Origin: a virus
Taxonomy: Duplodnaviria > Heunggongvirae > Uroviricota > Caudoviricetes > Peduoviridae
Length of the DNA stretch: 31,809 nt
Reading direction: 5' to 3' (one strand)
IMG/VR virus record: IMGVR_UViG_2974787780_000001
Made by a program: the position numbers and the translations under genes. Positions 2,460 through 22,046 of the stretch are shown one piece after another (the stretch's first letter is position 1; the number at the start of each line of letters is the position of its first letter). Below the pieces are notes generated by a model that saw nothing but the letters and a program-made list of their open reading frames with translations, was not told the DNA's origin and ran no database searches.

Positions 2460-2657
2460 ATGAGCAAAAAGGTTATCACGATACAAGTAAGAGGTGGGCA
2501 CGCAGGTGCTAAGCCTGTTCGTCGTTCAAAACTTGAACAAAGTGTTAATCGTTCCCTGCGTGCTTCGTTTTCTCTGGAAGGTAATCACATTACCAACACT
2601 TCATGGTCTAAAATGTCGCAGGCTGCACGTTTTCTGACCAGAGTAGCTGTTGCTTAA
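2460..2657 (+). CDS. Small basic hypothetical protein (65 aa from ATG 2460; 75 aa if from ATG 2430)
   Basis: ORF track 2430..2657; second ATG at 2460 has purine-rich agagag upstream. Basic composition; lies just downstream of A where P2 carries orf91. Stop codon overlaps the stop of the convergent Fic gene. Confidence 0.4.
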   Translation: MSKKVITIQVRGGHAGAKPVRRSKLEQSVNRSLRASFSLEGNHITNTSWSKMSQAARFLTRVAVA

Positions 2658-3739
2658 AGCTCTTTGATTGCCCTTGAAATAAGGGCAATCAGATTTCTGT
2701 TACTGTCGTGTATTGCGCGTCTTACAGCATAATGGTACGCACGTTTATTTCGCACATCTCCATCTAGCTTTTCCATATCAAATTCATAACCCATAGTAGT
2801 TGCAACAATCTGAAGAAATAATCGTATTGAACGACCATTACCATCTTGAAAGGGGTGGATCCATGCGATTTCTGCATGGAGAGTAGCTAGTTTATGAACT
2901 AACTCTGCTTTAGAATTTATTTTGCTAAGTTCTTTTTTTGTGCAACCTCTAAGACAGGCTTTTAATGATTTTTTGACTTCATTATGTTCCATTGTTGGTC
3001 GCTCTTTATCTCCAACAACAACGGGATGGTTTCTGTATTCACCTGCCCAATCATAAATATGGCCAAAAAGAGCTTTATGGCATTCTAAGATCGTCTTTTC
3101 ATTAATTGTTTTATTTTTGTCGGAGACATAATTTATTATGAGCTGCGTACTTTTGATATATGAAATAACCATTTCGGCAAATTCAACTTGGTATTGGTAT
3201 TTTGCAAATACTAGATTTTTTGTTGCCATGTATTCATATCTTTCATTTTTTCCGTCACGTAAAAGAAAAATGTTGTCTTTTTGGTGCTTTACTTTGATTA
3301 CATGATTGCGTTGAAATGGAAAGTTTTTGTCGTGAGGCAATATGTGAAAATAAGTTTCTTTTTTTAGCTTGTCTACACCAACAATTGAACCAAAAAGAAA
3401 AAGGGCTGCTGTTGTATTAAATAAAACACATACGGAGTCGCCAAGTTGTATCTCTTCGCGACTTAGATCGCATGTTTTTTTCTTATAATTAAATAAATGG
3501 GCGATAGATGGTATGCTGTGATGATTGCGCAATGAACCTGAGCCACATATGACTTCTTTTGTCCTGCTATTCCAGTAATAATTAATGCTTCTCTTATTCT
3601 CTTGTGTTCTTTTTATATGAACCAACTTGAAGCTAAGTAGGCTTAAAGAGAATTCACCATTCTTTTTGACTATATTAACTTTTTGGTGTTTCATTTTGTT
3701 TTTTGTTAGTGTTATTGAAAAATGTTTTGAAGGTATCAT
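2654..3739 (-). CDS. Fic/Doc (Fido) domain protein with ~200-aa N-terminal domain of unknown function; candidate cargo toxin/defence effector
   Basis: 361-aa ORF; C-terminal half contains HPFQDGNGRSIR, matching the Fic active-site consensus HxFx(D/E)GNGRxxR, preceded by the Fic-typical HKALFGHIYDWAGEYR helix. Region is visibly AT-rich versus flanking phage genes. Start codon uncertain (no clear Shine-Dalgarno). Confidence 0.8.
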   Translation of the reverse strand: MIPSKHFSITLTKNKMKHQKVNIVKKNGEFSLSLLSFKLVHIKRTQENKRSINYYWNSRTKEVICGSGSLRNHHSIPSIAHLFNYKKKTCDLSREEIQLGDSVCVLFNTTAALFLFGSIVGVDKLKKETYFHILPHDKNFPFQRNHVIKVKHQKDNIFLLRDGKNERYEYMATKNLVFAKYQYQVEFAEMVISYIKSTQLIINYVSDKNKTINEKTILECHKALFGHIYDWAGEYRNHPVVVGDKERPTMEHNEVKKSLKACLRGCTKKELSKINSKAELVHKLATLHAEIAWIHPFQDGNGRSIRLFLQIVATTMGYEFDMEKLDGDVRNKRAYHYAVRRAIHDSNRNLIALISRAIKEL

Positions 3740-4308: not shown

Positions 4309-5343
4309 TCAGCCGTTGTCAGTGTCCAGTGAGTAGTTTTTAAAGCGGATGACCTCCTGACCGAGCCAGCCGTTTATCTCGCGGATCCTGTCCTGTAACG
4401 GGATAAGCTCATTGCGGACAAAGACCTTTGCCACTTTCTCAATATCACCCAGCGACCCGACGTTCTCCGGCTTGCCGCCCATCAACTGAAAGGGGATGCG
4501 GTGCGCGTCCAGCAGGTCTGCGGCACTGGCTTTTTTGATATTAAAAAAATCGTCCTTCGTCGCCACTTCACTGAGCGGGATAATTTTAATGCCGTCGGCT
4601 TTTCCCTGTGGGGCATAGAGAAACAGGTTTTTAAAGTTGTTGCGGCCTTTTGACTTGACCATGTTTTCGCGGAGCATTTCGATATCGTTGCGATCCTGCA
4701 CGGCATCGGTGACGTACATGATGTATCCGGCATGAGCGCCGTTTTCGTAATACTTGCGGCGGAACAGCGTGGCTGATTCATTCAGCCAGGCAGAGTTAAG
4801 GGCGCTGAGATATTCCGGCAGACCGTACAGCTCCTGATTAATATCCGGCTCCAGCAGGTGAAACACGGAGCCGGGCGCGAAAGGTGTCGGCTCATGGAAG
4901 GACGGCACCCACCAGTAAACATCCTCTTCCACGCCACGGCGGGTATATTTTGCCGGTGAGGTTTCCAGTCTGATGACCTTACCGGTGGTGCTGTAACGCT
5001 TTTCCAGAAACGCATTACCGAACACCAGAAAATCCAGCACAAAGCGGCTGAAATCCTGCTGGGAAAGCCACGGATGCGGGATAAATGTCGAGGCCAGAAT
5101 ATTGCGTTTGACGTAAATCGGTGAGCTGTGATGCACGGCAGCACGCAGGCTTTTTGCCAGACCGGTAAAGCTGACCGGTGGCTCATACCATCTGCCGTTA
5201 CTGATGCACTCGACGTAATCCAGAATGTCACGGCGGTCGAGTACCGGCACCGGCTCACCAAAGGTGAATGCCTCCATTTTCGGGGCGCTGGCGGTCATTT
5301 TTTTTGCCGCAGGTTGCGGTGTTTTCCCTTTTTTCTTGCTCAT
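4309..5343 (-). CDS. Q: Portal protein gpQ
   Basis: 344-aa ORF, same length as P2 gpQ; adjacent to cos and upstream gene P on same strand; start overlaps P stop by 1 nt. Confidence 0.92.
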   Translation of the reverse strand: MSKKKGKTPQPAAKKMTASAPKMEAFTFGEPVPVLDRRDILDYVECISNGRWYEPPVSFTGLAKSLRAAVHHSSPIYVKRNILASTFIPHPWLSQQDFSRFVLDFLVFGNAFLEKRYSTTGKVIRLETSPAKYTRRGVEEDVYWWVPSFHEPTPFAPGSVFHLLEPDINQELYGLPEYLSALNSAWLNESATLFRRKYYENGAHAGYIMYVTDAVQDRNDIEMLRENMVKSKGRNNFKNLFLYAPQGKADGIKIIPLSEVATKDDFFNIKKASAADLLDAHRIPFQLMGGKPENVGSLGDIEKVAKVFVRNELIPLQDRIREINGWLGQEVIRFKNYSLDTDNG

Positions 5344-8143: not shown

Positions 8144-8197
8144 CCGGCGTCAGTCCGGGAAAACCTTCACGATTAACCCTTAATTTCAGGAAAAACT

Positions 8198-9271
8198 ATG
8201 CGCCAGGAAACCCGCTTTAAATTTAATGCCTACCTGTCCCGTGTTGCCGAACTGAACGGCATCGATGCCGGTGATGTGTCGAAAAAATTCACCGTTGAAC
8301 CGTCGGTCACCCAGACCCTGATGAACACCATGCAGGAGTCCTCTGACTTTCTGACCCGCATCAACATTGTGCCGGTCAGCGAAATGAAAGGGGAAAAAAT
8401 TGGCATCGGTGTCACCGGCTCCATCGCCAGCACCACCGACACCGCCGGTGGCACCGAGCGTCAGCCGAAGGACTTCTCGAAGCTGGCGTCAAACAAGTAC
8501 GAATGCGACCAGATTAACTTCGATTTTTATATCCGCTACAAAACGCTGGACCTGTGGGCGCGTTATCAGGATTTCCAGCTCCGTGTCCGTAACGCCATTA
8601 TCAAACGCCAGTCCCTTGATTTCATCATGGCTGGTTTTAACGGCGTGAAGCGTGCCGAAACCTCTGACCGCAGCAGTAACCCGATGCTGCAGGATGTGGC
8701 GGTCGGCTGGCTGCAGAAATACCGCAATGAAGCTCCGGCGCGCGTGATGAGCAAGGTCACTGACGAGGAAGGCCATACCACCTCTGAGGTTATCCGCGTG
8801 GGTAAGGGCGGTGATTATGTCAGCCTTGATGCACTGGTGATGGATGCGACCAATAACCTGATTGAACCGTGGTATCAGGAAGACCCTGACCTTGTGGTGA
8901 TAGTGGGACGTCAGTTACTGGCGGACAAGTATTTCCCCATCGTTAACAAGGAGCAGGACAACAGCGAAATGCTGGCCGCTGACGTCATCATCAGCCAGAA
9001 ACGCATCGGTAACCTGCCAGCGGTACGCGTCCCGTACTTCCCGGCGGATGCGATGCTCATCACGAAGCTGGAAAACCTGTCCATCTACTACATGGATGAC
9101 AGCCATCGCCGCGTGATTGAGGAAAACCCGAAACTCGACCGCGTGGAGAACTACGAGTCAATGAACATTGATTACGTGGTGGAAGACTACGCCGCCGGCT
9201 GTCTGGTGGAAAAAATTAAGGTCGGTGATTTCTCCACACCGGCCAAGGCGACCGCAGAGCCGGGAGCGTAA
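8198..9271 (+). CDS. N: Major capsid protein gpN
   Basis: 357-aa ORF, P2 gpN length and position between O and M. Confidence 0.92.
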   Translation: MRQETRFKFNAYLSRVAELNGIDAGDVSKKFTVEPSVTQTLMNTMQESSDFLTRINIVPVSEMKGEKIGIGVTGSIASTTDTAGGTERQPKDFSKLASNKYECDQINFDFYIRYKTLDLWARYQDFQLRVRNAIIKRQSLDFIMAGFNGVKRAETSDRSSNPMLQDVAVGWLQKYRNEAPARVMSKVTDEEGHTTSEVIRVGKGGDYVSLDALVMDATNNLIEPWYQEDPDLVVIVGRQLLADKYFPIVNKEQDNSEMLAADVIISQKRIGNLPAVRVPYFPADAMLITKLENLSIYYMDDSHRRVIEENPKLDRVENYESMNIDYVVEDYAAGCLVEKIKVGDFSTPAKATAEPGA

Positions 9272-15974: not shown

Positions 15975-18710
15975 ATGAGCACGAAATTTAAAACCGTTAT
16001 CACTACTGCCGGAGCCGCGAAGCTGGCAGCCGCCACTGTTCCCGGCGGGAAAAAAGTAAACCTGTCTGCAATGGCTGTGGGTGACGGTAATGGCCAATTG
16101 CCGGTGCCGGATGCCGGTCAGACGAAACTGGTGCATGAAGTCTGGCGTCATGCCCTGAATAAAGTCAGTGTGGATAACAAGAATAAAAACTATATCGTGG
16201 CTGAACTGGTTGTTCCGCCAGAAGTGGGCGGCTTCTGGATGCGTGAGCTTGGTCTGTATGACGATGCCGGAACACTGATTGCGGTATCCAACATGGCAGA
16301 AAGCTATAAGCCAGAACTGGCTGAAGGCTCCGGACGTGCGCAGACCTGCCGCATGGTTATTATTCTCAGCAACGTGGCGTCCGTTGAGCTGAGTATTGAT
16401 GCCAGCACAGTGATGGCGACGCAGGATTACGTCGATGACAAAATCGCAGAGCATGAGCAGTCCCGCCGCCATCCTGACGCCACGCTGACAGAAAAAGGTT
16501 TTACTCAGTTAAGCAGTGCAACAAACAGCACCAGTGAAAAGCAGGCTGCAACGCCAAAGGCAGTAAAAGCAGCCTATGACAATGCTGAGAAACGTCTGCA
16601 GAAAGACCAGAACGGTGGCGATATTCCAGATAAGGACGCTTTTCTGGACAATGTTGGCGTTACCAGCCTGACGTTTATGAAAAACAATGGCGAAATGCCG
16701 CTTGATGCTGATCTGAATACATTTGGTCCCGTTAAGGCTTATCTGGGAATCTGGTCTAAAGCTACCTCAACTAACGCAACACTGGAGAAAAATTTCCCGG
16801 AAGATAATGCTGTCGGTGTGCTTGAGGTTTTTGCTGCCGGCAATTTTGCAGGTACGCAACGCTTCACCACGAGAGACGGCAATGTATACATACGCAGACT
16901 CGCCAATAAGTGGAATGGCTCTGATGGTCCGTGGGGCATATGGCGTCACACTCAATCAGCTACCCGCCCTTTGAGTACGACTATAGACCTGAATACGCTT
17001 GGAGCCGCCGAACATCTTGGTTTATGGCGTAACAGTAGCTCGGCTATAGCTTCATATGAACGCAATTATCCAGAGGAAGGCGGCTTTGCTCAGGGGATGC
17101 TTGAGATCCTCGAAGGCGGAAATTATGGAAGAACGCAACGTTATACCACTCGCCGTGGAAATATGTACGTCCGCTGCCTTGCGGCAAGCTGGGATGCATC
17201 AAATCCGCAGTGGGAACCGTGGTTAAGAGTCGGTCATCAGTCAGAGAGTCGTTATTACGAAGGTGATTTAAATGTTCTAACCGACCCCGGTATTTACAGT
17301 GTTACAGGAAAGGCAACAAACGGTCCGATGCTGGACACCGTTGGCGCGACACTACTTGGGATACTGGAAGTAATCAGACGTTTTGATGGTGTGTCTGTCT
17401 GGCAGCGTTACACAACCACAGGGAAATCAGAAACCACACAGGGACGCACTTTTGAGCGCGTCTACGCCGGGAGCAAATGGACCGAATGGCGAGAAGTATA
17501 TAACTCCTTTTCGTTGCCTCTGAATCTGGGCATCGGTGGCGCAGTGGCAAAACTATCCATTCTGGACTGGCAGACCTACGATTTTGTGCCGGGCAGTCTG
17601 ATAACCGTTCGGCTTGATAATATGACCAACATTCCCGACGGTATGGACTGGGGCGTCATTGATGGCAACCTGATAAACATCGCAGTTGGTCCGAGTGATG
17701 ATTCCGGTACGGGGCGCTCAATGCATGTATGGCGCAGCACTGTAAGTAAAGCCAACTACCGCTTTTTTATGGTGCGCATTTCAGGAAATCCGGGAAGCCG
17801 CACGATCACAACAAGACGAGTACCAATCATTGACGAAGCCCAGACATGGGGCGCGAAACAGACATTCAGTGCTGGCCTTTCTGGTGAACTGTCCGGCAAT
17901 GCGGCGACAGCAACAAAGCTGAAAACAGCCCGTAAAATTAATAACGTTTCGTTTGATGGAACATCAGATATTAACCTGACGCCGAAAAATATTGGTGCAT
18001 TTGCTTCAGGAAAAACAGGAGACACCGTTGCGAATGATAAAGCCGTTGGATGGAACTGGAGTAGCGGAGCCTATAACGCAACTATTGGTGGGGCATCAAC
18101 GTTAATTCTTCATTTTAATATCGGTGAAGGAAGTTGTCCCGCCGCCCAGTTTCGCGTTAATTATAAGAACGGTGGTATTTTTTATCGTTCTGCTCGTGAC
18201 GGTTACGGATTCGAGGCTGACTGGTCTGAGTTTTATACCACAACGCGAAAACCTACAGCGGGAGATGTCGGTGCACTGCCGTTATCTGGTGGTCAATTGA
18301 ATGGTGCTCTGGGTATAGGAACATCCAGTGCTCTTGGCGGTAATTCGATTGTTTTGGGTGATAATGACACGGGCTTTAAACAAAATGGTGATGGTAATCT
18401 GGATGTTTATGCTAATAGCGTCCATGTTATGCGCTTTGTCTCCGGAAGCGTTCAAAGTAATAAAACCATAAATATTACGGGGCGTGTTAATCCCTCGGAT
18501 TACGGTAACTTTGATTCCCGCTATGTGAGAGATGTCAGACTTGGCACACGTGTTGTCCAGACCATGCAGAAAGGGGTGATGTATGAGAAAGCAGGGCACG
18601 TAATTACCGGGCTTGGTATTGTCGGTGAAGTCGATGGTGATGACCCCGCAGTATTCAGACCAATACAAAAATACATCAATGGCACATGGTATAACGTCGC
18701 ACAGGTGTAA
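15975..18710 (+). CDS. H: Tail fibre protein gpH (enlarged, with three tandem ~93-aa internal domain repeats)
   Basis: 911-aa ORF; conserved P2-H-like N-terminus (MSTKFKTVITTAGAAKLAAATVPGGKK); central tandem repeats sharing DLNT..G..L/Y....QR(F/Y)TT..G..Y..W; divergent C-terminal receptor-binding portion. P2 gpH is 669 aa as I recall. Confidence 0.9.
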   Translation: MSTKFKTVITTAGAAKLAAATVPGGKKVNLSAMAVGDGNGQLPVPDAGQTKLVHEVWRHALNKVSVDNKNKNYIVAELVVPPEVGGFWMRELGLYDDAGTLIAVSNMAESYKPELAEGSGRAQTCRMVIILSNVASVELSIDASTVMATQDYVDDKIAEHEQSRRHPDATLTEKGFTQLSSATNSTSEKQAATPKAVKAAYDNAEKRLQKDQNGGDIPDKDAFLDNVGVTSLTFMKNNGEMPLDADLNTFGPVKAYLGIWSKATSTNATLEKNFPEDNAVGVLEVFAAGNFAGTQRFTTRDGNVYIRRLANKWNGSDGPWGIWRHTQSATRPLSTTIDLNTLGAAEHLGLWRNSSSAIASYERNYPEEGGFAQGMLEILEGGNYGRTQRYTTRRGNMYVRCLAASWDASNPQWEPWLRVGHQSESRYYEGDLNVLTDPGIYSVTGKATNGPMLDTVGATLLGILEVIRRFDGVSVWQRYTTTGKSETTQGRTFERVYAGSKWTEWREVYNSFSLPLNLGIGGAVAKLSILDWQTYDFVPGSLITVRLDNMTNIPDGMDWGVIDGNLINIAVGPSDDSGTGRSMHVWRSTVSKANYRFFMVRISGNPGSRTITTRRVPIIDEAQTWGAKQTFSAGLSGELSGNAATATKLKTARKINNVSFDGTSDINLTPKNIGAFASGKTGDTVANDKAVGWNWSSGAYNATIGGASTLILHFNIGEGSCPAAQFRVNYKNGGIFYRSARDGYGFEADWSEFYTTTRKPTAGDVGALPLSGGQLNGALGIGTSSALGGNSIVLGDNDTGFKQNGDGNLDVYANSVHVMRFVSGSVQSNKTINITGRVNPSDYGNFDSRYVRDVRLGTRVVQTMQKGVMYEKAGHVITGLGIVGEVDGDDPAVFRPIQKYINGTWYNVAQV

Positions 18711-18713
18711 TTT

Positions 18714-19241
18714 ATGCAGCATTTAAAAAATATTACTGCGGGTAATCCAAAAACTGTTGCCCAATATCAACTGACAAAAAATTTTGATGTTATCTGGTTA
18801 TGGTCCGAAGAGGGAAAAAACTGGTATGAGGAAGTAAGTAATTTTCAGGAAGACACGATAAAGATTGTTTACGACGAGAATAATATAATTGTCGGCATCA
18901 CCAGAGATGCTTCAACGCTCAACCCTGAAGGTTTTAGCGTTGTCGAGGTTCCTGATATTACCGCCAACCGACGTGCTGATGACTCAGGTAAATGGATGTT
19001 TAAGGATGGTGCCGTGATTAAGCGGATTTATACGGCAGACGAACAGCAACAACAGGCAGAATCACAAAAGGCCGCGTTACTTTCCGAAACCGAATCCGTG
19101 ATTTTGCCGCTGGAGCGCGCTGTCAGGCTGAATATGGCAACAGATGAGGAGCGCAGTCGACTGGAAGCATGGGAACGCTACAGCGTTCTGGTCAGTCGTG
19201 TGGATCCTGCAAATCCTGAATGGCCGGAAATGCCGCAATAA
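18714..19241 (+). CDS. G: Tail fibre assembly protein gpG
   Basis: 175-aa ORF immediately after H, P2 gpG length. Confidence 0.85.
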
Positions 19242-19453
19242 GTTGTATGAGCTCTGGTGGGAGCTTACATATCTATGGCACAGAGTAAAGCCTAATCTGA
19301 CAGTCCGCTCTGTGCTAGGAGCGGACATTGTTGCCATCTATCTGCATAAATCTGTGGGGAGCTGCTCACTTGTGGGGAATGAGTCCTCAACTGTTTGCGT
19401 TTATAAACACAATCCTTTAGATTCTCTCCTACTATCTACTAAATTTTTATCTA

Positions 19454-20581
19454 GTGAAAATGCCCAATAATCATATGTATGCAAGTCTACTGTCTTACAA
19501 AAACTTAAAGATGGCACATCAAGGAAGTAACTTACGGTCTATTACTGAGTTTTCTCTCTATTCAGATAGTCAACCAATTGGGGCGGTTGATGATGATTCA
19601 GTTTATTGTTTTCTGAATATGCTACCCAGGATAACCAAACAATCCACCGTTGCATCTTCAATTACAGTGCGCACAAAGTGGTATAGTGACTTAAATAATA
19701 TGATTCTTTCTAGTTCTCAGAGTCATACAAAGGATTATCATGGTGGATGGTATAATGATGAAATAGCTGCGCTTTCAAGTTTACTGCTTGGTGTCCGTTT
19801 TCATGCTGGGTCAATTACTCGTCACTATGATTACTACACAGGTGATTTCGGAAGGATCCAAGCGGAGAGTTCTTTTCCTCCCGTTTTAGAGTTTAAACAT
19901 AACAAACCTATAGTTCCTAATGCTATCAAAGAAATTGATATAACTAACCTTAAAGAGCTTAACAATTTACATCTCTTAAGTGAAAAGAATTTCAACCATT
20001 TAATTAGAGCAGCCAGAAGCTATCAAAATGCATTATGGATATGCGAGTCATCTCCAAATATGAGTTGGCTATTGATGGTGTCAGCCCTAGAATGTGCGGC
20101 TAATCAATGGGCAAAATCCAATGCGTCTAAAGAAGAAAGATTTAAACATGCCAAGCCTGAATTATATGAAAAATTAGATACCAATGAATTTAGACATTTA
20201 ATCTCTATTATTGCTAATGAGTTTAAAGATTCATTTGGGGCGACAAAGAAGTTTGTGGATTTCTGCCTGTATTTCCTTCCAGATGAACCTCAAGTGAGGC
20301 CAAAAGTAGGAAGAATTGATTGGGGAAAAGAATCGCTATCAACAACTTTTAAAAAAATATATAACTACCGTTCTAAGGCATTGCATGGAGGACAACCATT
20401 TCCTGAGCCGATGTGTTCCTATCCTGAAGTATGGGATGGGTATATTGCTGAACGAGCGAGAGCATGTTCAACCTTAGGTGGAACGTGGTTGAATGAAGAT
20501 GTGCCAATTAATTTAAATACATTCAACTTTATGACCCATTCCATTTTGAATAAGTGGTGGCAATCTTTATTACCAAGTTAA
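19454..20581 (+). CDS. Hypothetical protein, AT-rich cargo gene at the Z/fun variable locus; candidate single-gene defence or lysogenic-conversion function
   Basis: 375-aa uninterrupted ORF (GTG at 19454; in-frame ATGs at 19460, 19475, 19511) in a visibly AT-rich island between G and FI; followed by a perfect 10-bp hairpin and a terminator; no recognisable family motif. Confidence 0.7.
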   Translation: MKMPNNHMYASLLSYKNLKMAHQGSNLRSITEFSLYSDSQPIGAVDDDSVYCFLNMLPRITKQSTVASSITVRTKWYSDLNNMILSSSQSHTKDYHGGWYNDEIAALSSLLLGVRFHAGSITRHYDYYTGDFGRIQAESSFPPVLEFKHNKPIVPNAIKEIDITNLKELNNLHLLSEKNFNHLIRAARSYQNALWICESSPNMSWLLMVSALECAANQWAKSNASKEERFKHAKPELYEKLDTNEFRHLISIIANEFKDSFGATKKFVDFCLYFLPDEPQVRPKVGRIDWGKESLSTTFKKIYNYRSKALHGGQPFPEPMCSYPEVWDGYIAERARACSTLGGTWLNEDVPINLNTFNFMTHSILNKWWQSLLPS

Positions 20582-20603
20582 CACTGTAAGTATCAGTGTT
20601 AAC
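20577..20603 (+). other. Perfect inverted repeat (hairpin) overlapping stop codon of the 375-aa gene
   Basis: GTTAACACTG-TAAGTAT-CAGTGTTAAC: 10-bp perfect stem, 7-nt loop; no immediate T-run. Confidence 0.5.
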
Positions 20604-20732
20604 TGCACCATGTAATTTTATATCTGTACCAGACTGGAGGAAAATGTTCGCTTATCGCTCATTAGGGTCAACCATACTCAAATCTCTCACATTGCAGGAG
20701 ATTTGAGTATGAACACGTCACCGTGGAAGGAC

Positions 20733-20758
20733 TGGCGGGCGAATTGCCCGCTTTTTTG
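20733..20758 (+). terminator. Rho-independent terminator separating cargo gene from FI operon
   Basis: GCGGGC-GAATT-GCCCGC hairpin followed by TTTTTT. Confidence 0.6.
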
Positions 20759-20855
20759 TATCTGTTGTTTCATCCACTGACCAGCCAGGTCAAATAGCGT
20801 CTCATGCTCTGCACAACAGAAAATAGTTGCACCCATTAACCACGGAGTTAAACGG
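20759..20855 (+). promoter_or_regulatory. Probable Ogr-dependent late promoter for FI operon
   Basis: Position equivalent to the P2 late promoter upstream of FI; contains partial dyad TGCACAAC..GTTGCA. Not verified. Confidence 0.3.
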
Positions 20856-22046
20856 ATGAGTGACTATCATCACGGCGTGCAGGTGCTGGAGATTAACGAC
20901 GGCACCCGCGTCATTTCCACCGTATCCACCGCCATTGTTGGCATGGTCTGCACGGCCAGCGATGCGGATGCGGAAACCTTCCCCGTCAATAAACCGGTGC
21001 TGATCACCAATGTGCAGAGCGCGATTGCAAAGGCCGGTAAAAAAGGCACGCTGGCGGCATCGTTGCAGGCCATCGCTGACCAGTCAAAACCGGTCACCGT
21101 TGTCGTGCGCGTGGAAGACGGCACCGGCGACGACGAAGAAACGAAACTCGCGCAGACCGTTTCCAATATCATCGGCACCACTGACGAAAACGGTCAGTAC
21201 ACCGGACTGAAAGCCCTGATGGGCGCAGAGTCGGTTACCGGCGTTAAACCGCGCATTCTCGGCGTACCGGGACTGGACACCAAAGAGGTGGCGGTTGCAC
21301 TGGCATCGGTATGCCAGGAACTGAATGCCTTCGGGTATATCAGCGCATGGGGCTGTAAAACCATTTCCGAGGCAAAAGCCTACCGTCAGAATTTCAGTCA
21401 GCGTGAGCTGATGGTCATCTGGCCGGATTTCCTTGCATGGGATACGGTCACCAGTACCACCGCCACCGCGTATGCCACCGCCCGTGCGCTGGGGCTGCGT
21501 GCCAAAATCGACCAGGAGCAGGGCTGGCATAAAACGCTGTCCAACGTCGGGGTAAACGGTGTTACCGGCATCAGCGCATCTGTATTCTGGGATTTGCAGA
21601 AGTCTGGCACTGATGCTGACCTGCTGAACGAGGCAGGCGTCACAACGCTGGTTCGCCGCGACGGTTTCCGTTTCTGGGGTAACCGTACCTGCTCCGATGA
21701 CCCACTTTTCCTCTTTGAAAGCTACACACGTACCGCGCAGGTACTGGCCGACACGATGGCTGAGGCGCACATGTGGGCTATTGATAAGCCCATCACCGCA
21801 ACGCTGATTCGCGACATCATTGATGGCATCAATGCCAAATTCCGCGAACTGAAAAACAACGGTTATATCGTGGATGGCACATGCTGGTTCAGTGAAGAAG
21901 CCAACGATGCGGAAACCCTCAAGGCCGGAAAACTGTATATCGACTACGACTATACACCGGTGCCTCCTCTCGAAAACCTGACCCTGCGCCAGCGTATTAC
22001 TTCAAGATACCTGGCAAGTCTGGTCACCTCGGTTAACAGCAATTAA
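20856..22046 (+). CDS. FI: Tail sheath protein gpFI
   Basis: 396-aa ORF, P2 FI length; MSDYHHGVQVLEINDGTR N-terminus. Confidence 0.93.
   Translation: MSDYHHGVQVLEINDGTRVISTVSTAIVGMVCTASDADAETFPVNKPVLITNVQSAIAKAGKKGTLAASLQAIADQSKPVTVVVRVEDGTGDDEETKLAQTVSNIIGTTDENGQYTGLKALMGAESVTGVKPRILGVPGLDTKEVAVALASVCQELNAFGYISAWGCKTISEAKAYRQNFSQRELMVIWPDFLAWDTVTSTTATAYATARALGLRAKIDQEQGWHKTLSNVGVNGVTGISASVFWDLQKSGTDADLLNEAGVTTLVRRDGFRFWGNRTCSDDPLFLFESYTRTAQVLADTMAEAHMWAIDKPITATLIRDIIDGINAKFRELKNNGYIVDGTCWFSEEANDAETLKAGKLYIDYDYTPVPPLENLTLRQRITSRYLASLVTSVNSN

Follow-up and report, generated by a model that had tools for sequence, protein, structure and literature searches.

We analyzed a 31,809-nucleotide stretch of DNA (the window) from a virus of the family Peduoviridae, IMG/VR record IMGVR_UViG_2974787780_000001, and within it a gene encoding a 375-amino-acid (aa) protein between the tail fiber and tail sheath genes. 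The window is a complete P2-like phage genome in which this gene fills the variable G-FI (Z/fun) slot, and the gene is horizontally acquired accessory cargo in that slot. We found that the C-terminal domain of the protein is, in all likelihood, a HEPN domain of the catalytic type, as predicted from its modeled fold and an invariant motif. With slightly better than even confidence, we propose that the protein is a stand-alone, two-domain HEPN endoribonuclease that is autoinhibited and defends the lysogen by abortive infection. It is a credible anti-phage candidate.

A predicted HEPN nuclease with an unrecognized N-terminal domain

The gene and the parts of its product are as follows:
19454..20581, + strand: coding sequence (CDS) of the 375-aa two-domain protein, with a GTG start (open reading frame [ORF] call and comparative alignment)
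19454..19933, + strand: N-terminal alpha/beta domain (aa 1-160), a proposed sensor or regulatory domain of unrecognized fold
19940..20569, + strand: C-terminal HEPN-fold domain (aa 163-372), from the AlphaFold2 model
20369..20386, + strand: Rx4H predicted ribonuclease (RNase) active-site motif, R306-S307-K-A-L310-H311, from alignments

The AlphaFold2 model is confident (predicted local distance difference test [pLDDT], 92; predicted template modeling score [pTM], 0.90) and shows two domains. In the predicted structure, the C-terminal domain has the four-helix up-down HEPN core described by Anantharaman et al. 2013, made of helices 177-196, 201-220, 292-312, and 354-372 with insertions at 221-291 and 313-353, and the Rx4H motif sits at the end of the third long core helix. 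Catalytic HEPN RNases are marked by Rx4-6H, in which the R is followed by a polar residue (in most cases N, D, or H), and by an upstream acidic residue, typically in an Ex3[K/R] motif; these enzymes have a composite dimeric active site with metal-independent RNase activity (PMC3710099).

The block Y303-x-x-R306-S307-x-x-L310-H311 was invariant in an alignment of 34 sequences, down to 28% identity. Among 125 representatives at 30-41% identity, Y303 and H311 were present in all 125, R306 in 124, S307 in 123, and L310 in 122; E213 (codon 20090-20092), on the second core helix, was also retained in 125 of 125. A sequence-only reading of this region had recognized no catalytic motif in the protein, a claim overturned by this invariant Rx4H signature on a predicted HEPN-fold domain.

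The N-terminal domain is conserved about as much as the catalytic domain and carries a strongly conserved charged set (E32, D38, R73, H96, E103, R115, and R123). It gave no confident structural match, and a Foldseek search against the PDB returned nothing meaningful (best E = 2.1).

A widespread, uncatalogued family

An exhaustive HMMER search at E ≤ 1e-3 recovered no fewer than 1,038 representatives of clusters at 50% identity, 479 of them with E ≤ 1e-30, and the members found in this way are nearly all 370-400 aa long and match from end to end; an indexed search gave 99 homologues. The spread of the family is patchy, with members in Enterobacterales, Cyanobacteria, Actinobacteria, Planctomycetes, Acidobacteria, Chloroflexi, Alphaproteobacteria, and Betaproteobacteria, as well as in two archaeal metagenome-assembled genomes and seven plasmids.

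The protein had been called unrecognized, and searches of Pfam, PADLOC, PHROGs, and NCBIfam agreed, none of them giving a family match. A tblastn search against phages returned near-identical copies only. The further suggestion of a previously undescribed single-gene system holds in that the family is uncatalogued; it is of a known kind, however, that of the solo HEPN nucleases, and UniRef already uses the name "Apea-like HEPN." This label, in full "Apea-like HEPN domain-containing protein," is attached to several members of the protein's own 90% cluster, including A0A7D3QJH9, which is gp24 of Yersinia phage vB_YpM_22, and at NCBI the name is hypothetical protein. PF18739 does not match the labeled members (2025 Pfam copy, E ≤ 10), a literature search for "Apea-like" found no paper that uses the term, and the label was probably generated by an automatic naming model. 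We take it as independent support for a HEPN domain and as no evidence of membership in ApeA.

A few representatives have long N-terminal extensions, and one of the 125 has extra helix-hairpin-helix domains (PF12836, E = 2e-14).

Accessory cargo in the Z/fun slot

The slot and the genes that flank it are as follows:
15975-18710: tail fiber gene (Pfam PF12571, PF03406, and gp37_C)
18714-19241: tail fiber assembly protein gene (Pfam PF02413)
19242..19328, no strand assigned: hotspot "left inverted repeat" of the P2 Z-region, phage backbone outside the cargo
~19330..20650, + strand: variable cargo cassette (leader, gene, and structured 3' region), from alignment breaks and a G+C content of 0.34-0.39
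20856-22046: tail sheath gene (Pfam PF04984 and PF17482)

The tested region is 100% identical in the P2-like (Peduovirus) Yersinia pestis phages VB-YPM-18 and vB_YpM_476B. The placement of the gene at the Z/fun position between tail fiber and sheath genes, proposed earlier, is borne out by the Pfam matches of the flanking genes and by P2 itself, whose G-FI interval holds fun(Z), a gene on the opposite strand that is annotated as blocking T5. The locus is also variable, as had been claimed: the flanks were matched in 1,584 of 5,426 complete Escherichia coli genomes, only 5 of which carried the 375-aa gene, and related P2-like phages have unrelated cargo in this slot (NUDIX plus HAD, metal-binding, DUF4145, and others).

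Similarity to other P2-like phages ends at ~19328, resumes weakly from ~20650, and is strong from 20734, and the right flank of the cargo aligns with P2. The interval first singled out, 19242-20855, thus contains the cargo, and its truly variable part is narrower, ~19330-20650. The left repeat is near-identical in P2-EC67, where it is annotated as the left inverted repeat, and in E. coli A13, which has DUF4145 cargo; small hairpins lie within it (e.g., 19278-19285 / 19308-19315). Whereas this repeat is intact in the present phage, the "right inverted repeat," well conserved in P2, P2-EC67, and E. coli A13, is represented here by diverged sequence at 20650-20733.

The gene is a single long ORF of low G+C content, another observation that stood (0.37 versus ~0.5-0.56 in the flanks). 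In 300-bp windows G+C was 0.34-0.39 within the gene; the values were 0.43-0.51 upstream of it and 0.53-0.59 downstream, and the 3-kb flanks average 0.48 and 0.56. Enterobacterial homologues all have a G+C content of 0.35-0.38 regardless of their flanks, a composition that is foreign in every enterobacterial host.

Passages in the P2/P4 hotspot literature describe the late and tail gene loci of P2 as recognized defense hotspots and report that most unknown genes cloned from P4 hotspots turned out to be protective; a figure given in the P2 hotspot literature is that ~19% of P2-like phages lack a recognizable defense gene. Targeted term searches of the main text of P2/P4 hotspot papers found no mention of the 375-aa protein.

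Genomic contexts of homologues

Representative homologues and their surroundings are as follows:
P0006, 73% identity: beside a lambdoid prophage integrase, at the prophage edge
P0010, 70% identity: small chromosomal islet
P0013, 55% identity: another P2-type prophage, directly after the tail fiber gene and adjoining a PIN_12 gene
P0022, 53% identity: abuts the tail end of a siphovirus-type prophage
P0033, 50% identity: integrative element with transposase and integrase
P0045 (distant), 37% identity: inside a type I restriction-modification (R-M) operon, the surrounding island also holding Vsr/Dcm and a true ApeA

The gene is a stand-alone single gene without a conserved partner of ≥70 aa. We compared neighboring ORFs of ≥70 aa by all-against-all BLAST across 35 loci from very different organisms, and only the focal family was common to them. 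Within the same scope, which would miss very small or RNA antitoxins, no cognate antitoxin recurred, and nucleotidyltransferases were not among the 25 most frequent neighbor families, to which the tally was limited.

The gene moves among prophage cargo slots, integrative elements, and, once, a type I R-M operon. In that last case (P0045, on a metagenome contig, locus L009, 8001-9122) it lies between hsdR/hsdM and an hsdS-like gene, a position that is classic for PrrC-type and ApeA-type nucleases (PMC3710099). The four nearest neighbors in distant loci vary in kind, with many ordinary genes and some R-M, Uma2, or integrase genes. We regard the genomic context as supportive and not as statistical proof. 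Near P0045 there are also genes for Vsr, Dcm, a histidine-kinase-type ATPase, and a true ApeA (PF18862 plus PF18739), so that two different HEPN proteins occur within ~8 kb.

Proposed mechanism and points against it

The steps that we propose follow those established for the HEPN enzymes PrrC/RloC, RNase L, ApeA, HepS, and DARNA. The protein would dimerize through its HEPN domains and thereby form a composite, metal-independent RNase site. In the lysogen it would be kept inactive by its N-terminal domain or its oligomeric state; because there is no antitoxin gene, it is presumably held inactive by itself. An infection-associated signal sensed by the N-terminal domain would activate it, and the activated protein would cleave host RNA, most likely in tRNA anticodon loops, leaving 2',3'-cyclic phosphate ends. 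Translation would then stop and the infection would be aborted, protecting the lysogen population and the resident prophage. The N-terminal domain is conserved about as much as the catalytic one, which favors as the signal a small molecule or nucleic-acid species that is itself conserved over a phage protein that varies; conserved ligands of this sort have precedents in the deoxydinucleotides of ApeA and the single-stranded DNA (ssDNA) of DARNA.

A more ambitious version of this proposal is tentative and, in our judgment, rather doubtful. According to it, the proteins make up a widespread single-gene immune family whose N-terminal domain is a new kind of infection sensor, in which the E32/D38/R73/H96/E103/R115/R123 set binds a conserved small molecule or nucleic-acid product and allosterically releases the HEPN RNase.

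It is important to point out that several results weigh against a defensive HEPN RNase. As read from the alignment, the Ex3[K/R] motif is not kept, since position 217, four residues after E213, varies among N, D, G, V, Q, and A and is never K or R. The residue after R306 is a serine, which is polar but is not the N, D, or H that is commonest there. No Pfam HEPN model matched any of the 34 plus 125 members at E ≤ 1; PADLOC, NCBIfam, and PHROGs linked the family to no HEPN family; and searches of PDB sequences, with the single protein or a profile, gave nothing meaningful. Comparison by hhalign with ApeA and with DUF4145 gave a probability of 0.1 in each case, but a control comparison of ApeA with DUF4145 also gave 0.05-0.1, and because this pair of accepted HEPN clades failed as well, the result is uninformative at the superfamily level. 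Many distant homologues lie among ordinary chromosomal genes, with no dominant defense signal in the annotation of their neighbors, and the promoter scan found no convincing promoter for the gene. Finally, the RNA target, the trigger, and the oligomeric state proposed above are pure inference.

Alternative explanations

It is possible, though we consider it unlikely, that the protein is an active HEPN RNase toxin with a role other than defense, such as stabilization of a mobile element, stress dormancy, bacterial competition, or another form of lysogenic conversion. HEPN toxins do act in toxin-antitoxin and further conflict systems (PMC3710099), many homologues sit among ordinary chromosomal genes without visible defense neighbors, and one variant lies directly downstream of a ParE-like stub. 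Addiction-type systems, however, need an antitoxin or other partner, and none recurs here, whereas HEPN-MNT and type II toxin-antitoxin pairs have an adjacent antitoxin gene. We saw no signal peptide or secretion-associated neighbor. The closest relatives occupy prophage cargo slots known for defense genes, and one homologue is in the classic R-M-embedded position of an anticodon nuclease, both of which count against this alternative.

The HEPN-like domain might alternatively be noncatalytic and serve to regulate or to bind a ligand or nucleic acid, as MtlR and the substrate-binding domains of nucleotidyltransferases do, in which case the protein would be a regulator or adaptor. Such families exist (PMC3710099), sequence profiles do not place the present one, and the conserved charged residues of the N-terminal domain could themselves form an active or binding site. 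Yet noncatalytic HEPN families have lost Rx4-6H (PMC3710099), while here the R and the H persist in 124-125 of 125 representatives at ~33% overall identity, and E213 and S307 are kept along with them. Retention of these residues at such divergence is the pattern of a catalytic site under selection, and we regard a noncatalytic domain as improbable.

We think it equally improbable that the protein is a very divergent true member of ApeA and hence an already named defense system, although the resemblance is considerable. ApeA is reportedly the single-gene defense of Gao et al. 2020. Like the 375-aa protein, it is a single protein with an N-terminal noncatalytic region and a C-terminal split HEPN domain with insertions; in both, Rx4H on the third core helix is followed by G, within the similar context R-[N/S]-x-x-[V/L]-H-G, and both occur in defense islands and R-M operons. 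The same logic is proposed for the two, that of an autoinhibited tRNase activated by a signal bound away from the active site, which for ApeA is a deoxydinucleotide (bioRxiv 10.64898/2026.01.26.701840). The UniRef names point in this direction too, but no paper uses that label and it is probably machine-generated. ApeA proteins are 460-580 aa long rather than 375 aa, and no similarity in sequence or profile (hhalign, above) was detectable. Models PF18739 and PF18862 and the PADLOC ApeA models matched neither the 375-aa protein at E ≤ 10 nor any of 159 relatives at E ≤ 1, whereas the true ApeA proteins used as comparison all carry PF18739. The N-terminal folds also differ: that of the ApeA control is a beta-barrel of the Hcp/tail-tube/PilZ type, and the 375-aa protein has a small alpha/beta domain and lacks the ApeA-type N-terminal region (~230-300 aa, beta-rich in the PF18862 type).

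A role in the phage life cycle or tail (as a host-range factor or a chaperone of the fiber, for example, expressed along with the late H-G operon) would suit the gene's strand, its position after the tail fiber operon, and the lack of a strong promoter of its own, but it is very improbable, given that only 5 of ~1,584 junction-bearing E. coli genomes have the gene, which is therefore dispensable, that its composition is foreign and no PHROGs or Pfam phage family matches, that homologues in archaea, actinobacteria, cyanobacteria, and plasmids are far from tail genes, and that a conserved hairpin-rich boundary separates it from G.

Comparison with other single-protein nucleases and with cargo of the same slot

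The autoinhibited HEPN RNase that we favor would join several described nucleases without being identical to any of them. HepS, the "HEPN solo" anticodon nuclease of the Gifsy-1 prophage, is switched on when a siphovirus tail-tip peptide binds to it directly (PMC13043305). It is <250 aa long and has no extra domain, whereas the 375-aa protein has a conserved 160-aa domain in addition; identity with HepS was rejected on this architecture, and the two belong to different families. DARNA, a promiscuous tRNA anticodon nuclease activated by a nucleic-acid (ssDNA) signal (bioRxiv 10.64898/2026.02.22.705581), is likewise a single-protein HEPN enzyme with one extra domain, which in DARNA is the sensor. 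Its domain order is reversed (HEPN at 1-159, then a helical ssDNA-binding domain, 456 aa in total), so identity with DARNA was also rejected, and the two proteins are nonhomologous beyond the HEPN fold. PrrC and RloC share the HEPN Rx4H catalytic chemistry predicted here, and the P0045 homologue is embedded in its type I R-M operon exactly like prrC; they differ in having an N-terminal ABC-ATPase, while neither Pfam nor the model shows an ATPase domain in the 375-aa protein.

Fun(Z), P2-EC67 ORF1, and the DUF4145 protein of E. coli A13 occupy the same G-FI slot, with the same repeats and terminator. Homology to Fun(Z), which is encoded on the opposite strand, was rejected (BLASTP E = 4.8), as was homology to P2-EC67 ORF1 (E = 1.7). 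These values, together with the lack of Pfam or PHROGs matches, support the view that the protein is neither a tail component nor related to Fun(Z) or the P2-EC67 cargo. DUF4145 is itself a HEPN clade (PMC3710099), but its Pfam model (PF13643) gave no match and its motif, R-x3-G-N-x3-H, is spaced differently.

What is new here is the N-terminal domain and the uncatalogued family, as HepS, ApeA, and DARNA have already established the concept of solo HEPN RNases in prophage cargo slots. Another such protein in a prophage hotspot would be no surprise to specialists, and we see it as a good concrete candidate for experiments. If confirmed, it would add to the single-protein HEPN abortive-infection nucleases a large family that is invisible to Pfam and the 2023 PADLOC models, and it would explain some "empty" P2 hotspots. 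The unrecognized N-terminal domain would then offer a fresh example for the chief open question of the area, which is how partnerless toxic effectors sense infection. Because the carrier phages are used and isolated on Y. pestis and E. coli, lysogens of these hosts may differ in their susceptibility to other phages.

Start codon, promoter, and 3' structures

Further features of the cassette and its right boundary are as follows:
19395..19423, + strand: putative weak sigma-70-like promoter, TTGCGT-17 nt-TAGATT, placed by its conserved position
20576..20604, + strand: perfect 11-bp hairpin with a 7-nt loop over the stop codon (20576-20586 / 20594-20604), from hairpin search and folding
20673..20711, + strand: perfect 14-bp hairpin with an 11-nt loop, within the diverged version of the hotspot right repeat
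20734..20752, + strand: intrinsic terminator (GGCGGGCGAATTGCCCGC then a T-run), from a terminator scan, upstream of the FI late promoter

The GenBank CDS begins at the ATG at 19460 (373 aa), and for other members in databases the called length is 368 or 356 aa. We prefer the 375-aa reading because the GTG at 19454 is aligned with ATG in the homologues of 70% and 73% identity and the ATG at 19460 is ATA in one homologue (locus L003); the GenBank call is thus probably two codons short. The promoter-like pair TTGCGT-17-TAGATT scores under the 9-of-12 threshold of the promoter scan. Its position is kept in two homologous cassettes, as TTGTAT-17-TAAATT (L043) and TTGCAG-17-TACAGT (L003), and a leader of ~50 bp (19406-19453) is common to L043. 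This positional conservation suggests that the gene carries a putative promoter of its own.

The sequence-only reading had suggested an autonomous transcription unit, insulated by a perfect 10-bp hairpin at the stop codon and a terminator before FI. Both structures exist, and the unit is indeed a single gene, but the insulation is weaker than supposed. The hairpin, which is 11 bp long, has no neighboring T-run and was not called by the terminator scan; it does not travel with the gene, being absent downstream of homologues in other contexts, and we rejected it as a cassette-specific element. The terminator is kept in P2, P2-EC67, and E. coli A13 independently of the cargo that they carry, everything beyond it is common to them as well, and the P2 annotation places the pF activator site and a transcription start just downstream. 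We therefore assign it to the conserved phage backbone and not to the cargo, and we rejected it as a sign of cargo autonomy. The 191-nt 3' region is unusually structured, folding better than shuffled sequence (z = -4.2), and Rfam found no known RNA in the cassette.

Additional observations on homologous loci and the second cargo slot

One and the same module of ~100 bp comes after each of the homologues of 73%, 70%, and 53% identity; it consists of a fragment resembling the 3' half of a tRNA and a hairpin terminator, AACCAGCC..GGCTGGTTTTTT (L003/L004/L005, 9140-9225; L043/L044, 8140-8235; L047/L048, 8135-8225). The fragment begins in the anticodon loop and presumably matches the 3' part of tRNA-Pro(GGG); two copies of the module are decayed, and ARAGORN found no intact tRNA in it. 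The module looks like an att-site remnant travelling with the gene. The copy of the gene in the window is without it, and homology to L003 stops exactly at the stop codon.

The islet of the 70% homologue (L043/L044, 8671-9708) lies between the hyc and hyp/fdh operons and contains, in addition, a YaaC-family protein (PF14175) and small ORFs without annotation. In a Raoultella-type P2-like prophage (L045/L046, 7001-9429), the 55% homologue is paired with a convergent gene for a 356-aa PIN_12 protein (PF16289), and the P2 left inverted repeat (window 19244-19326) recurs between the two, in inverted orientation, at 8193-8275. A Pectobacterium member (P0021, 443 aa) has 67 extra N-terminal residues resembling the start of a ParE toxin, which is why some entries bear the name "RelE/ParE family toxin." In sister entries the called protein has 376 aa, and the extra residues probably stem from a parE remnant upstream in the same frame or from a start-codon artifact.

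The window also includes the second classical cargo slot, which has replication gene A (1-2283, PF05840) on one side and the portal gene (4309-5343) on the other. The gene in this slot, at 2654-3739 (- strand), encodes a Fic-domain protein (PF02661) of 361 aa with matches to two PADLOC candidates, PDC-S04 (E = 3e-33) and SoFic, so that both P2 hotspots of this phage carry toxin-domain proteins.

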